From: Gammaproteobacteria bacterium
GTDB taxonomy: Bacteria > Pseudomonadota > Gammaproteobacteria > SZUA-152
Direction of reading: 5' to 3'
Assembly (NCBI GenBank): GCA_032250735.1
Contig: JAVVEP010000005.1
Location: forward strand, 91,602 to 155,601
Length of the DNA stretch: 64,000 bases
Shown: positions 4,902 to 45,377 of the stretch, piece after piece
Numbering within the stretch: position 1 is the stretch's first letter
How the letters are laid out: the number at the start of each line of letters is the position of its first letter
Position numbers and translations under genes: made by a program
The notes under the pieces: generated by a model
Told to the model about the DNA's origin: nothing
Seen by the model: only the letters and a program-made list of their open reading frames with translations
Databases searched by the model: none

Positions 4902-6153
4902 AGTGGCAGGCCCCGTGAGAGGCGGGGCAGCGTGCCGGCCATGCCCATGGAGTGACGCGCGATGCTGTGTTTGATCGGCGGCAGGATGTCGGCGGCGATG
5001 AGGCCAAGATTGCGCAGCAGCGCCAGCGGGGGCAGACGGTTGGAAAAGGTCTGCACCAGGATATTGGTAAAGCCGATCACCTGTTGGTGGTCGCGCTGAC
5101 GCCAGCGGGCATAGCTCTCCAGGGTCTCAAGGCTGCCGGGATCCTGGCCGGCGCGGCGCGCATCGACGAGGGTCTGCGCCAGGCTGGCGACGTCGCGCAG
5201 TCCCAGATTGAAACCCTGCCCGGCGATGGGGTGCAGGGTATGCGCGGCATTGCCGATCAGCGCCAGACGGGGGCGCACCTGTTCCTGCGCCTGGATCAAT
5301 TGCAGGGGATAGCTGTGGCGTTTACCCACCGTCAGGAGGCGTCCCAGGCGCCGGCCGAAACAGGCCTGTAGCGCGGCGAGAAAATCGGCATCACCCGCCT
5401 GTAACAGCCGTTCGGCATCCTCCGGGGCGCGGGTCCAGACCAGCGCGCAGCGGTTGTCCGGCATGGGTAGCAGGGCCAGCGGCCCGTGACGGGTGAAGCG
5501 TTCGTAGGCGATGTGCCGGTGCGGTTTTTCGGGCGTGATGTTGGCGATGATGGCGGTCTGCCGGTAGTCGCGCTCGGCGGTGCGGATCGCCAGCAGCTGG
5601 CGCACCTGTGAACTGCCACCATCGGCGGCGACCACCAGTGTGCTGCTGAGCGACTGCGTGCCGCCATCGACGTGGGTGACGGTTATCGTCGCCGTGGCGC
5701 TATCGAGGTCCAGTCCGGTCACGGTGGCCGGGCTGATCAGGGTTAGATTGCTGCACTGCTGGAGGGCGCCCAGCAGCTGTGCGCCGAGTTGCCGCGCGGT
5801 GACCACATAGCCCAGGGCCTCGACGCCTTCCTGCGCGGCGTGTAGCCGGGTGAAGCCAAAGCGGCTCTGATCCGAGACGTGGATGTGATCGATGGCGGTG
5901 GTGTGCGGGGCGATCCCCGCCCACAGCCCCATGCCCTCAAAGATGCGTCGGGCGCCAAACGACAGGGCAATGGCGCGGTCATCGTAACTGGGCGGGGCGG
6001 TGTCGCCCTGTCCCTGGGCCGGCAGGGGTGCCGCCTCCACCAGCGCGATGCGTAACGGCTGCCCGGCCAGGCTGAGCGCAAGGCTGGCGCCCACCATGCC
6101 GCCGCCGATAATGAGCAGATCGTAATCGGCGTTGTTGTGCAGGGAAGGGCTCA
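4898..6153 (-). CDS. ubiH: 2-octaprenyl-6-methoxyphenol hydroxylase, UbiH-like FAD monooxygenase
   Basis: Carries the DYDLLIIGGGMVG motif. The tracked ORF extends to 6280 with an Arg/Gly-rich N-terminus overlapping pepP, so the real start is probably a GTG overlapping the pepP stop (GTGA) near 6153. Confidence 0.65.
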
Positions 6154-7494
6154 CGCCGGGTGTGCGGCCATCAGTCGTTCGATGTCGGCGATGGCCTTGG
6201 GCGCGTCCTTGCTCAGCACCTCGCAGCCCTCCCGGGTGACCAGGATGTCGTCCTCGATACGAATGCCGATGCCCTGCCATTTTTTGGCGACGCTGCGCCT
6301 GCCGACCTTGCAGCCGGGGGCGATGTACAGACCGGGCTCGACGGTCAGCACCATGCCCGGTTCCAGTTCACGCCAGGCCTCGCCCACCTTGTAATCGCCG
6401 ACATCGTGCACGTCGAGCCCCAGCCAGTGGCCGGTGCGATGCATGTAGAAGGTGCGATAGGCCTGTTCCTTGATCAGGCTGCGCAGATTGCCCTTGAGCA
6501 GGCCGAGTGAGAGCAGCCCCCGGGTCAGCACGCGCACCGCCGCCTCGTGCGGGTCGTTCCAGTGGTTGCCGGGCCGCACCTTGTCGATGGCCGCCAGCTG
6601 GGCCTCGAGCACGACCTCGTAAACGGCCCGCTGTTCGGGGCTGAAGCGGCCGTTGACGGGGAAGGTGCGGGTGATGTCGGCGGCATAGAGCTGGTTTTCC
6701 GCACCGGCATCGATGAGCAGCAGGTCGCCATCTTTCAGCTCGGCACTGTTTTCCGTGTAGTGCAGGATGCAGCCGTTCTCTCCGCCGCCGACGATGGGAG
6801 TATAGGCATTGACCATATTGTGTTGTTTGAAGTGGTGCTGAAATTCCGCCTCGATCTCGTATTCCCGTTTGCCGGGGCGACATTGCTGCATGGCACGCAC
6901 ATGGGCCTGGGCGGAGACGATCGCCGCCTTGCGCATGGCGGCGATCTCGGCGGGACTCTTATACAGGCGCATATCGTGCAGCAGATGATCGAGGTCCACG
7001 AATTCCTGCGGCGGATGCACGCCGGCGCGGGACTGTTCCCGCAACTGGTTGACCCAGCCGGTGACGTGCTGATCAAACTGGGTGTCGCGGCCCATGGCGT
7101 AATAGACCCGCTCACTGCTTTCCAGCAGACCGGGCAGGATGTCGTCGATATCGGTGATGGGGAAGGCGTCGTCGGCGCCATAGAATTCCATCGCGCCTTC
7201 CAGGCCGGCGCGGCGGCCGTGCCAGGTCTCCATCTGCGGGTCGCGTTCGCGGCAGAACAGGATCACTTCACCGTGTTTGCGTTTGGGGATCAGCACCAGC
7301 ACCGCCTCGGGTTCATTGAAGCCGGAGAGGTAGTAGAAATCGCTGTCCTGTCGATAGGGATATTCGGCATCGCGGTTGCGCATGCGATTGGGTGCGGCGG
7401 GCAGGATAGCCACCGAGGCCTTGCCCATCATCTGCATCAGGCGTTTGCGGCGGCGGGCGAATTCGGTACGTGTGATATGCGGTTTGGGCGTCAT
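6151..7494 (-). CDS. pepP: Xaa-Pro aminopeptidase PepP (M24B family)
   Basis: Shows the AMP_N plus M24 pita-bread fold, including the metal-ligand motifs HGTGHWLGLDVHD and EPG. Start chosen at the internal MTPKPHI; the upstream extension lies in MITE DNA. Confidence 0.85.
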   Translation of the reverse strand: MTPKPHITRTEFARRRKRLMQMMGKASVAILPAAPNRMRNRDAEYPYRQDSDFYYLSGFNEPEAVLVLIPKRKHGEVILFCRERDPQMETWHGRRAGLEGAMEFYGADDAFPITDIDDILPGLLESSERVYYAMGRDTQFDQHVTGWVNQLREQSRAGVHPPQEFVDLDHLLHDMRLYKSPAEIAAMRKAAIVSAQAHVRAMQQCRPGKREYEIEAEFQHHFKQHNMVNAYTPIVGGGENGCILHYTENSAELKDGDLLLIDAGAENQLYAADITRTFPVNGRFSPEQRAVYEVVLEAQLAAIDKVRPGNHWNDPHEAAVRVLTRGLLSLGLLKGNLRSLIKEQAYRTFYMHRTGHWLGLDVHDVGDYKVGEAWRELEPGMVLTVEPGLYIAPGCKVGRRSVAKKWQGIGIRIEDDILVTREGCEVLSKDAPKAIADIERLMAAHPA

Positions 7495-7546: not shown

Positions 7547-7731
7547 CTGAGAGCCTGTGAAAAAATCGCCGGCCTACTGCGGGCACCGCTTTGCGGCTGC
7601 AACTGCGTTGCGCTACGCGAAAACGGCGGTCATTTGGTTCACCAAACTCCCTTGTTTTCGCATAGCGCGCCTTGTTTCGCTCGCAAATCGACGCCCTCGC
7701 TACGGCCGTCGAATTTTTCACAGGCTCTGAG
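7547..7731. mobile_element. MITE-like element family X, 185 bp with 22-bp terminal inverted repeats (ctgagagcctgtgaaaaaatcg)
   Basis: Left and right ends are near-perfect inverted repeats. A collapsed 60-bp copy is at 45318..45377. Confidence 0.6.
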
Positions 7732-7761
7732 AAAAGCTTCCGTCTCAGCGCGCAACGGGGT

Positions 7762-7978
7762 AGGGCGCAATAACCGAAGGGCATTGCGCCGCATGAAACA
7801 TTTCCCAAGGCAGAATCGTTTTGATTGACCGATGGATAATGCCTCGCAGAGCAATCATTTACAGTTGCCTTGGTGTCATTCGTTGGCTGGGGTATGTATC
7901 GGCGTCCATGAAGGCATTTACGTTGTTTTTCCGTGGCGACTGACCATACGGCGCAATGCCCTTCGGTTATTGCGCCCT
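7762..7978. mobile_element. MITE-like element family Y, 217 bp with 30-bp hairpin-forming terminal inverted repeats (agggcgcaataaccgaagggcattgcgccg)
   Basis: Terminal inverted repeats are at 7762-7791 and 7949-7978. A second 217-bp copy in inverted internal orientation is at 35437..35653. Confidence 0.65.
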
Positions 7979-8008
7979 ACGCACTGCCATAGGGCGATGG
8001 CTTAGCAG

Positions 8009-8557
8009 TCAACCCTGCAGCGGTTGCAGCTCCTCATTGATCAGCAGCACGCCGACGCGCAGGTATTCGACCAGCTCGGCATAGGCGTGTTCATCCTCCT
8101 CGCTGCCTTCCAGGTCGTACGAGGTGCCGGCGCGGGCGATCTCCAGCATGTCCTTGGCGATCTCGCGGGCGTCTTCGGGCAGGGGGGCGAAGTCTTTGAC
8201 GCCGCCGAGGCTGAGACCGATCAGGTAACCCTGGCACCAGTCACCCAGGGCATTCACCCGCTGGTCGAGGCTGTCGTTGTCATCGGGCAGCAGCATCTGG
8301 AATTCACAGTTGGGGTCGTTGAGCTGGCGTCGGGTGACCTCGTGACTGGTCCTGAAGACCTCGTTGGCCTCGGCGGCCAGCAGGTCGCCTGCGGGCTGAT
8401 TCGGCCACAGGGCCTGCTGCCAGACCGCGGGCTCGGCGCTGGTGTTGGCGCACAGCAGGCCGCAGAGTGTGCCGTGCACCTCGCTGGGCATGACCTCGGT
8501 ATTGAGCTTGCTGAGGGCCAGGGCGATGGCCTGGTAGTCGGGCAGTTCTCGTTGCAT
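8009..8557 (-). CDS. ygfB: UPF0149 family protein YgfB
   Basis: Conserved synteny with pepP-ubiH. Start set at the internal ATG (MQRELPDYQ) preceded by an aagga RBS; the upstream extension has no support. Confidence 0.7.
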   Translation of the reverse strand: MQRELPDYQAIALALSKLNTEVMPSEVHGTLCGLLCANTSAEPAVWQQALWPNQPAGDLLAAEANEVFRTSHEVTRRQLNDPNCEFQMLLPDDNDSLDQRVNALGDWCQGYLIGLSLGGVKDFAPLPEDAREIAKDMLEIARAGTSYDLEGSEEDEHAYAELVEYLRVGVLLINEELQPLQG

Positions 8558-9408: not shown

Positions 9409-9597
9409 GGCGCCGCCTGCGGTGTTCGATACTGTATCGGATTTTTCTTGGCCTATGCTTAACCCTGTTGGGGGCATTACATCGGTGTTGTGTGCATGTC
9501 CGTTCATCGGAAAGCCTGATATGCCGATTGTTGTTCCCACCTCAATCGCTCCGGTCCCAAGAGTGACGATACGGCCGGCACAGGCGGGGGGCGCCTC
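9409..9597 (+). ncRNA. ssrS: Putative 6S RNA (ssrS)
   Basis: Non-coding gap of about 400 nt between zapA and ygfA, which is the conserved 6S locus. The 5' end GGCGCCGCCUGCGGUG can pair with the 3' end CACAGGCGGGGGGCGCC, enclosing about 187 nt, followed by a T-run. Confidence 0.5.
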
Positions 9598-10472: not shown

Positions 10473-12116
10473 TTACAAGACCGAGCCGAAGGCGGTAAGG
10501 CTGTCACGCATCGCGGCATTACCGAGACTGTCGCCGAACAGGCTGCCAAACAGGGCCTCTTCGCCGTTCAGGGCAAGGTAGTTCAGTAACACCGTATCCA
10601 CCAGCAGGTTGACGTTGTTGGCCGCCGGACTGGACGAGGTCACCACCGAGCCTCCGTCATTGAACCAGCCGATTTGCGCGCCGGTGGCGATGGCGCTGTC
10701 ACTGAAGTGGGTGGCCCGGCCATTGGGGCTGAAGACCAGGAAGAAGCCGGCCGCCGTGGAGGAATTGTCACCCGTCCATACACCCTTGCCGCGGCCGTTC
10801 ACGCTGCCATCAATGGCGCCGTTACTGGCCAGTGAGCCATCACTGAAGACGTAGATCATCACCGGGCTATCCATGCGCCGCGCATATTCCAGGCAGGCAC
10901 CGATGCAGCGGCCGGCACGCAGATCGCGCACCTCGCCGGTAGCGCGGTCACCGGTATGGTAATCAAACCCTCCCATCTGGATAGTGCCGGCGCCGGCATG
11001 ACCGTCGATGACCATCTTCATCACCGAGGCGGTCTTGCGGAATTCGGCGTCACCATCGAACTCGGCCTCGGTGAAGATACCGCCAGCATCATTGACGATA
11101 ATTCGGTCAGCTGGAAGGATGGCATTCCGGTCATCGGGGCTGATCTCTTTGCCGACAAAGCGGTCGGCGATATCGGCGGCCTTGATGTAGCCGCAGTTCA
11201 GAAGATCCTGAATGACGGTGGAGGCATTGATGTTGGCCGTCTTTCTCTCGCTGAGGCGCACCACGGATTCCATCACCGCCTTGACGTCACTCGGGTCGCT
11301 GAGCACGGCGGTGAGATCGCCGGTATCAACCAGGCCAGTCACGTCGGATGGACGATCGACTTTGGTGGGGCGAATTTCAGCGGCTTTAAACAGAGGGTCG
11401 GTGAGGTGAGCGGCAGGCGCCATGGAGTTACCACCCGATTCGGAATTGCGGGAGCCTACCAGAGTGACGATGTCGCCACCGGCGCCGGCCCTGGCGATGC
11501 CGTACATGGGGTTGTGCGGATTGTTGCCGGTATCGTTGTCGGAGCGGGCCGGAATCACGGCGCCGTTCACCTTCGGGGCGGTCAGGGCCAGGTCGACCTT
11601 GTCGAGGATGCCGCGCAGATAGGCGCTGTCGGCGTGGAACGGCAGGCCCAGGGTGGTGTCGGTGTAGTCGCCATTGCTGGTGCCGGTGACCGAGAAGCCG
11701 GCGGGTTCGACACCGCCCGGCACCATATCACCCGGCACCCCCATCTTGCTGTAGCCCGCGGTGCTGAGCGGGGAGTTGATGTAGCCGTTTTGTCCGCCGA
11801 CCAGGACGTTGGAACCCACCATGTTGGCGCCGCCGGCCAGGTCAAAACAGATGAAGGGAATCTTGCCGGCCAGGGCGGAGCCGAGGGGGCAGCCGCTGTT
11901 GGCGGCAAGGGTTTGCAGGTCCGCGGAGAGGGCCGCCCGCGCCAGACGCGGATTGGCAAACAGGCTGAACAGGGAGCCGCCGATGGTGAGACCGGTGCCG
12001 GTAATGAAGCCCTGACGCAGGAAGTCGCGCCGGGTCACCGGGCGGCCGTGATCCAGATGGAACAGGGGCGCATCGGCGGAGAGCGCTTGGCGTCGTGTCG
12101 TTGTGCGTTTTGCCAT
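10473..12116 (-). CDS. Tat-exported DUF1501-like (sulfatase/phosphatase-superfamily-like) protein
   Basis: 547 aa with a twin-arginine motif (TRRDFLRQGFITGTG) and a GGFDYHTGD motif reminiscent of DUF1501. Last gene of a three-gene operon. Confidence 0.55.
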   Translation of the reverse strand: MAKRTTTRRQALSADAPLFHLDHGRPVTRRDFLRQGFITGTGLTIGGSLFSLFANPRLARAALSADLQTLAANSGCPLGSALAGKIPFICFDLAGGANMVGSNVLVGGQNGYINSPLSTAGYSKMGVPGDMVPGGVEPAGFSVTGTSNGDYTDTTLGLPFHADSAYLRGILDKVDLALTAPKVNGAVIPARSDNDTGNNPHNPMYGIARAGAGGDIVTLVGSRNSESGGNSMAPAAHLTDPLFKAAEIRPTKVDRPSDVTGLVDTGDLTAVLSDPSDVKAVMESVVRLSERKTANINASTVIQDLLNCGYIKAADIADRFVGKEISPDDRNAILPADRIIVNDAGGIFTEAEFDGDAEFRKTASVMKMVIDGHAGAGTIQMGGFDYHTGDRATGEVRDLRAGRCIGACLEYARRMDSPVMIYVFSDGSLASNGAIDGSVNGRGKGVWTGDNSSTAAGFFLVFSPNGRATHFSDSAIATGAQIGWFNDGGSVVTSSSPAANNVNLLVDTVLLNYLALNGEEALFGSLFGDSLGNAAMRDSLTAFGSVL

Positions 12117-45237: not shown

Positions 45238-45317
45238 CTCCTTACATTCAGGTTATCGGCGCGTAGCAGGCAGGGCTTTAGCGTGGTTAATGGTCAGTGA
45301 AAGGAGGAGGGAAGAGT

Positions 45318-45377
45318 GAGAGCCTGTGAAAAAATCGCCGACCTGCTACGGCCGTCGATTTTTTCACAGGCTCTGAG
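45318..45377. repeat. Collapsed MITE-X copy (two terminal inverted repeats joined, 60 bp palindrome)
   Basis: gagagcctgtgaaaaaatcg...cgattttttcacaggctctgag with only 20 bp of interior sequence. Confidence 0.6.

Follow-up and report, generated by a model that had tools for sequence, protein, structure and literature searches.

Two intergenic elements of a gammaproteobacterial genome as likely head-to-head REP doublets related to RAYT units

The defining signature of GTAG-type REPs is a 5' GTAG that adjoins an imperfect palindrome (PMC3733652; PMC3479197). In E. coli, TnpA_REP binds the REP hairpin together with its 5' GTAG on single-stranded DNA, cuts at a CT dinucleotide via a 5'-phosphotyrosine intermediate and is able to join strands again (PMC3479197). 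REPs also occur in the REPIN architecture, in which the spacer is less conserved than the REPs, and excision of the doublet as a unit has been observed in P. fluorescens (PMC3116915). Here, two elements that had been assigned to a MITE family are compared with these systems.

The window, the whole 64-kb stretch of DNA that was analysed, contains four exact copies of the 27-nt hairpin GGCGCAATAACCGAAGGGCATTGCGCC, where none are expected and none arose in 100 shuffles. The exact-match search placed two in each element, the left one on the forward strand and the right one on the reverse strand, and a looser stem pattern applied to the window returned the same four hairpins and no further ones. 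Copy A begins with a REP at 7760-7795 (+), made up of GTAG (7760-7763), the hairpin (7764-7790, with stem GGCGCAAT/ATTGCGCC) and a GCATG tail (7791-7795), and ends with an inverted REP at 7945-7980 (-), made up of a CATAC tail (7945-7949), the hairpin (7950-7976) and CTAC (7977-7980). Copy B has the same organization, with a left REP at 35435-35470 (+; GTAG, 35435-35438; hairpin, 35439-35465; GCATG tail, 35466-35470) and an inverted right REP at 35619-35654 (-; CATAC tail, 35619-35623; hairpin, 35624-35650; CTAC, 35651-35654). The CTAC at the right ends is the reverse complement of GTAG.

The full terminus is therefore GTAG, the 27-nt hairpin and GnATG, 36 nt in all, and the four termini in the window vary only at n. 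The GTAG lies directly 5' of the hairpin foot, outside the stem, in all four, as in GTAG-type REPs. Folded as single-stranded DNA, each terminus forms an 8-bp stem and an 11-nt loop with a 2-bp inner stem (-8.5 to -10.2 kcal/mol), in agreement with the original prediction that each terminal repeat folds as an 8-bp stem-loop. The 30-nt terminal inverted repeats that it had described are likewise present at all four ends, although the conserved terminus is really 36 nt. The hairpin is an imperfect palindrome within the 20-40 nt range of REPs that folds into a stem-loop in single strand, and both elements are intergenic, the sole overlap with a gene being that of the TAG of one head with a stop codon. 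Both window elements end in REP hairpins headed by a 5' GTAG, and not in terminal inverted repeats of the DDE type.

From GTAG to CTAC, copy A (7760-7980) is 221 bp and copy B (35435-35654) is 220 bp. The copies had been reported to be of identical length (217 bp), but when the same boundaries are applied like-for-like, copy A (7762-7978) is 217 bp and copy B (35437-35652) is 216 bp, 1 nt shorter, because the spacers differ in length (149 and 148 nt, respectively). The copy A spacer (7796-7944) is non-coding and has a G+C content of 47% vs 61% for the window; the copy B spacer (35471-35618) has a G+C content of 52%, and its reverse complement shares 74% identity with the spacer of copy A. The description of the interiors as mutual reverse complements is thus correct for their orientation but not for their sequence, as this identity holds over 141 nt and leaves them 26% diverged. 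Copies A and B are therefore not recent copies of one another, and since their termini are identical apart from n while the spacers have diverged to this extent, the termini must be constrained or homogenised. In transposable elements, the usual cause of conserved ends is that copies must retain the recognition site of the enzyme.

Each element has the inverted pair of REPs that makes up a REPIN doublet, and when the whole element was folded as single-stranded DNA, the termini paired over approximately 32-36 bp. This fold is far better than those of shuffled sequence (z = -9 to -11), and copies A and B face the same way with respect to host transcription. These two properties would suit structured small-RNA genes or cis-regulatory RNAs with a functional, conserved interior. 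However, the z values stem from pairing between the termini; the 149-nt spacer has no self-complementarity and contributes only local structures, which differ between A and B. The interior is moreover the least conserved part of the element (74%). Relatives of the spacer were not found by blastn in the at least 120 loci elsewhere that carry the hairpin, described below, and a single scan of metagenome contigs with the spacer 20-mer CCAAGGCAGAATCGTTTTGA returned only two unrelated chance matches. No ORF is conserved in the spacers: the reading frame is broken by a stop codon in copy A, and positions that differ between the two copies are not biased towards the third base of codons. A search of Rfam returned no match at the gathering score and, even at E<=1, only a spurious match to SOX2OT, so that the conserved structured RNA gene named in the original prediction as the finding that would overturn it has no Rfam support. 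We consider an RNA function of this kind extremely improbable. Comparison of the element, and hence its REP, with PLSDB plasmids gave no match.

When the exact 27-mer was scanned over 185,579 species-representative genomes, it was found in at least 120 loci (labelled L001-L120) in Beta- and Gammaproteobacteria and in two Verrucomicrobiaceae MAGs. Among the matches listed, the Betaproteobacteria include Thiobacillus, Rhodocyclaceae, Gallionellales and Sulfuricella, and the Gammaproteobacteria include Lysobacterales, Moraxellaceae, Spongiibacteraceae, Chromatiales, Mangrovitalea and Pseudohongiella. Over 152 exact instances among the matches listed, the conserved unit is c-GTAG-hairpin-GnATG, with the four head positions conserved in 139/152 (G), 135/152 (T), 141/152 (A) and 142/152 (G) of these instances. 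A weaker outer motif, CAGCCCGC...GCGGGCTG, lies beside many units.

In other genomes, inverted pairs of the hairpin approximately 590 bp apart, with GTAG outward, enclose an ORF of 176-182 aa (L002, L016, L057, L105, L120 and others). Inverted copies of this REP flank a RAYT gene in L098 and L027 too. The ORF product scores 204 bits against the NCBIfam equivalog NF047646, REP_Tyr_transpos (cut-off 80, E=8e-61), and can be aligned with E. coli TnpArep (PDB 4ER8; E=1e-48) from end to end. The RAYT motifs are in register with 4ER8 (HLH/HMH and DYVHINPVKHG/DYIYINPVKHG), with His-x-His and the catalytic Tyr conserved, while the Pfam model Y1_Tnp (IS200) remains below threshold (21.2 bits vs a cut-off of 23). 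By these comparisons, the ORF found between these REPs elsewhere encodes a Y1 HUH nuclease of the RAYT clade rather than of IS200.

In every case inspected, the identical ends hold a RAYT, a RAYT fragment or no gene, and the search for an IS with matching ends, suggested in the original prediction, led to nothing else. A doublet with 276 bp spacing in L011 retains RAYT residues 1-59, one with 302 bp spacing in L109 retains residues 91-176, and one with 227 bp spacing in L087 contains apparent RAYT remnants. Approximately 20 doublets with 47-130 bp spacing have no gene inside. Because the intermediate doublets keep pieces of RAYT while the short ones have none, the hairpin family spans the whole range from units that look autonomous, through truncated ones, to doublets without a gene. 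In all of them GTAG faces outward, which is the arrangement of the 'HH' dimers of Di Nocera et al. (PMC3733652). The range provides a natural series for study.

Several other arrangements of the hairpin were observed. In L097 (6250-6860), tandem units of approximately 205 bp carry the same hairpin with a GTGG head and a GGAC tail in place of GTAG and GnATG, and form an array. In L033 (1-2000), six REPs in the same orientation are interleaved with one full RAYT (766-1314) and two RAYT N-terminal fragments; further REP-like sequences there have shorter loops, and the REPs flanking the RAYT are direct, not inverted. Mangrovitalea sediminis (L005, L084, L113) has four doublets with near-identical 94-nt spacers. 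As their outer flanks, cttgctccatcg...ggcttttcacgc, are conserved too, the doublet sits within a larger repeated unit. A viral contig (L135) carries REP doublets, and RAYT homologues without these REPs were found on two Chromobacterium plasmids.

No RAYT or other transposase gene was found in either element or elsewhere in the 64-kb window, as the original prediction had stated for the elements. One candidate, a set of weak tblastn matches at 38500-38911, lies inside a gene for an NtrB-like histidine kinase and is spurious. The possibility that the spacer is a gutted RAYT gene was rejected: tblastn of 12 RAYTs against the window matched only residues encoded by the REPs, an nhmmer profile of 12 RAYT units returned nothing at E<=100, and Smith-Waterman scores were no better than those of shuffles. 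RAYT-unit homology was accordingly undetected in the copy A spacer. By eye, ATGCCTCGCAG.. resembles the RAYT start MP(DY)RRA and GACTGAC resembles the RAYT stop GATTGAC, a likeness that these tests do not support.

Classical MITEs would be cut and pasted by the DDE transposase of an IS with matching ends, and target-site duplications would be made in the process. That account could draw on the length of the terminal inverted repeats (36 nt), on a 'TA' beside the GGGCGC...GCGCCC core in both copies and on a 6-bp direct repeat, GGTGCT, that flanks copy B immediately outside GTAG and CTAC (35429-35434 and 35655-35660). However, the 'TA' belongs to the GTAG head, whose positions are conserved in 135-142 of the 152 instances among the matches listed, and each end is itself a hairpin, like the substrates of single-strand transposases. 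Copy A has no flanking direct repeat, and nothing comparable to GGTGCT occurs there or in nearly all other doublets. Across 38 doublets and units, flanking repeats matched a cross-pairing null (six-mers, one observed vs 0.11 expected; five-mers, one vs 0.14), and a target-site duplication of fixed length does not flank each copy. The ends being REP hairpins and a Y1/HUH RAYT being the only gene found between them elsewhere, a DDE-mobilised MITE is scarcely credible here, and the assignment to a MITE family is not upheld. To our knowledge, Y1 HUH transposases are not expected to create target-site duplications, and GGTGCT is thus unexpected for a Y1 enzyme. Missing duplications therefore say nothing against mobility. 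Their absence was to have counted against the original prediction, and although none is consistent in the 38 doublets and units, mobility is not refuted.

We consider it very likely that each element is a head-to-head GTAG-type REP doublet, with GTAG outward, and that it derives from a RAYT unit as a REPIN-like, non-autonomous form whose 149-nt non-coding spacer occupies the place of the transposase gene. We base this on the termini, which bear the REP signature in the window (GTAG, imperfect hairpin and GnATG tail at each end, with the ends inverted), and on the same ends in the same arrangement bracketing a RAYT gene in other genomes. By analogy with the E. coli and P. fluorescens systems, a RAYT whose gene lies elsewhere in the genome most likely mobilised the window doublets in trans. 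The enzyme would act on the single-stranded doublet and copy or move it, with its spacer, to other extragenic sites without target-site duplication, and the requirement for recognition by RAYT may hold the sequence of the four REPs constant as the spacer drifts. The original proposal of a non-autonomous element that has no transposase of its own and is mobilised in trans is plausible. The kind of element is well known, and MITE fits only if the term is taken broadly, for any non-autonomous element. An apparent new MITE is in this way re-filed under the REP/REPIN-RAYT system; a target-site duplication is then not to be sought, and the mobilising enzyme would be a single-strand tyrosine nuclease.

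The RAYT proteins found between these REPs are only 55-95% identical to one another, and their similarity does not track taxonomy: a Verrucomicrobiaceae RAYT is 67% identical to that of Thiobacillus, and a Gallionellaceae RAYT 56%. The two Verrucomicrobiaceae MAG contigs that carry the exact 27-nt REP, L094 and L114, are both long (365 kb and 192 kb). One exact REP accompanied by divergent RAYTs suggests either horizontal movement of the module or a very strong constraint on the REP. In a bolder scheme, the invariant 37-nt REP and its RAYT would be a module that moves horizontally among Beta- and Gammaproteobacteria and even Verrucomicrobia, the lineage of the window would have acquired it recently, and the long-spacer doublets would be a non-autonomous derivative private to that lineage, with a 149-nt cargo in fixed orientation to host transcription. 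We think this scheme unlikely. The prevailing picture is that REPIN-RAYT systems are vertically inherited, and horizontal REP-RAYT spread, if true, would bear on the debate over their vertical inheritance.

Copy A lies, as originally described, between pepP (6151-7494, -) and ygfB (UPF0149; 8009-8557, -), with its CTAC end 28 nt from the stop codon of ygfB. The gap between ygfB and pepP is 514 bp in the window vs 66-81 bp, with no REP, in three relatives whose YgfB is 85-86% identical. The gap also contains a member of a second, unrelated palindromic family, which has 28-nt inverted arms, CTGAGAGCCTGTGAAAAAATCGCCGGCC / GGCCGTCGAATTTTTCACAGGCTCTGAG. The element adjoining copy A (7547-7731) is 185 bp, with arms at 7547-7574 and 7704-7731 and a 129-nt spacer; another copy of this family is a 62-bp hairpin at 45316-45377, and an 18-nt arm sequence has four matches in the window vs 0.05 expected. 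The REP doublet and the second palindromic element together account for the growth of the gap from approximately 70 to 514 bp. A relative with 97.5% nucleotide identity matches the window through ygfB but diverges abruptly approximately 8 nt before the ygfB stop. Site A therefore differs structurally even between close relatives, although the contig of this relative (L131) is short, ending 17 nt after the stop, in sequence that resembles the second repeat family. A 6S RNA gene (RF00013, 76 bits) is found at 9411-9594, downstream of zapA. The usual arrangement is zapA-ssrS-5-formyltetrahydrofolate cyclo-ligase, and the 6S RNA region of the window follows it.

The gene context of copy B also agrees with the original prediction: it lies between an mshI-like (PilM_2) gene (34482-35438, +) and a pilin gene (35817-36215, +), and the mshI stop codon overlaps its GTAG head. 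The element had been said to provide the mshI TAG stop codon with its first three bases. It does provide the TAG (35436-35438), but as bases 2-4 of GTAG, and the codon begins one base before the start that had been assigned to the element. A reshaping of the mshI 3' end by the insertion, which had been thought probable, did not occur: MshI in the window is 318 aa and ends ...ALREEPVVL, with the same terminal residue (the homologous Leu) as all 60 orthologues inspected (60/60), so that the protein was left as it was. In place of the native mshI stop codon there is simply the TAG from the GTAG head, and donation of a TAG stop codon to an upstream ORF by GTAG REPs has already been described (PMC3733652). 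The overlap at mshI is thus a known habit of REPs, not gene damage.

In a relative with 91% nucleotide identity, a variant REP, GTAGTGCGCAATAACCGCAGGGCATTGCGCC, is found at the same mshI stop codon, with drift at 2 of the 27 hairpin positions; the REP variant of the Logan relative (samples SRR22808024-76) reads GTAGTGCGCAATAACCGCAGGG... Of the six contigs of the 91% relative, five independent ones (L121-L125) stop at an identical base, 31 nt past the mshI stop codon and inside the REP, and the sixth ends at that codon. A k=31 assembly is expected to break at such a base where a multi-copy repeat starts. As contigs break inside the REP and in sequence that resembles the second repeat family, these breaks hint that both may be multi-copy in the population of the Logan relatives. 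In an 81% relative (L127, 10958-11100), the gene ends with TAA and is followed by unrelated filler that has an inverted repeat of its own, CGACGTAAAAAAGTGA ... TCACTTTTTTACGCCG; the mshI-pilin intergenic site seems to gather palindromic insertions. No REP was found in approximately 45 kb fetched from 80-86% relatives, which fits an arrival of the REP family within the narrow lineage of the window. Just downstream of the REP doublet and upstream of the pilin gene is a palindrome, TGTGACGCCGGTCACA (35696-35711), which is kept in the 81% relative as TGTGACGCCCGTCACA (L127, about 11129-11144), together with the promoter-proximal sequence that follows; it is probably where a regulator of the pilin gene binds.

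The situation at the two sites also bears on whether the elements are immobile relics, that is, old doublets or gutted RAYT units that have lost the ability to transpose and are kept for a host role at gene 3' ends, such as mRNA 3'-end protection or DNA structuring, with the termini conserved by selection at the locus and not by transposability. The 26% divergence of the spacers implies an old duplication, and the REP of copy B is present at the same site in the 91% relative. Each copy follows a stop codon at a distance of 0-28 nt and has the same orientation to host transcription, which with n=2 could be chance, and host roles for REPs have been described (PMC3733652; PMC3479197). However, while the mshI-site REP of the 91% relative has drifted at 2 of 27 positions, the four REPs in the window exactly equal the consensus across taxa, and site A differs structurally in the 97.5% relative. 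Nor was a promoter-like site found in the elements, and their one terminator-like site lies on the strand opposite to host transcription, with no intrinsic-terminator-like site on the transcribed strand. Past spread driven by RAYT would itself be compatible with relics. We regard an immobile, host-maintained state as possible but rather doubtful, and favour doublets mobilised in trans by a RAYT.

Classical bacterial MITEs, such as Correia elements, resemble the window elements in being short, non-coding and intergenic with terminal inverted repeats. Unlike them, the window doublets have no consistent target-site duplication and a hairpin at each end, and their REP is linked to a tyrosine HUH nuclease in place of a DDE transposase. 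IS200/IS605 and their gene-less derivatives share subterminal hairpin ends, a Y1 HUH enzyme and single-stranded DNA transposition without target-site duplication. However, RAYTs are a separate clade (21.2 bits, below threshold, for Y1_Tnp vs 204 for the RAYT model), and the two ends of a window element do not form a distinct left and right end but repeat one sequence in inverted orientation.

The REP/BIME and TnpA_REP 'REPtron' of E. coli (PMC3479197; PDB 4ER8) is closer. The 5' GTAG stands at the foot of an imperfect hairpin in both, and the RAYT found with the window REP in other genomes can be aligned with TnpArep along its entire length and keeps the HUH and Tyr motifs. E. coli REPs have other stem and loop sequences, and the window family is linked to RAYT through other genomes, by sequence. 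The REPINs of P. fluorescens SBW25 (PMC3116915) are similar in having inverted REPs around a less-conserved spacer, in being extragenic and gene-less, and in having a cognate RAYT gene flanked by the same REPs, which for the window REP is found in other genomes. They differ in their REP-to-REP offset, which is approximately 71 bp there, while the window spacer is 149 nt and not self-complementary. The window also has two copies only, 26% diverged, and no cognate RAYT within its 64 kb.

The exact stem-loop sequence was found in no paper of the library searched, and it is absent from the text of the paper that describes the HH dimers of the GTAG REP superfamily (PMC3733652). The window spacer exceeds the 20-100 bp of most of these dimers. 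In their organization, the dimers nonetheless match the window elements: GTAG lies outside the dimer, beyond the untagged end there is a short tail that is conserved, spacers are conserved from copy to copy, and the TAG of the tag is the stop codon of the upstream ORF.
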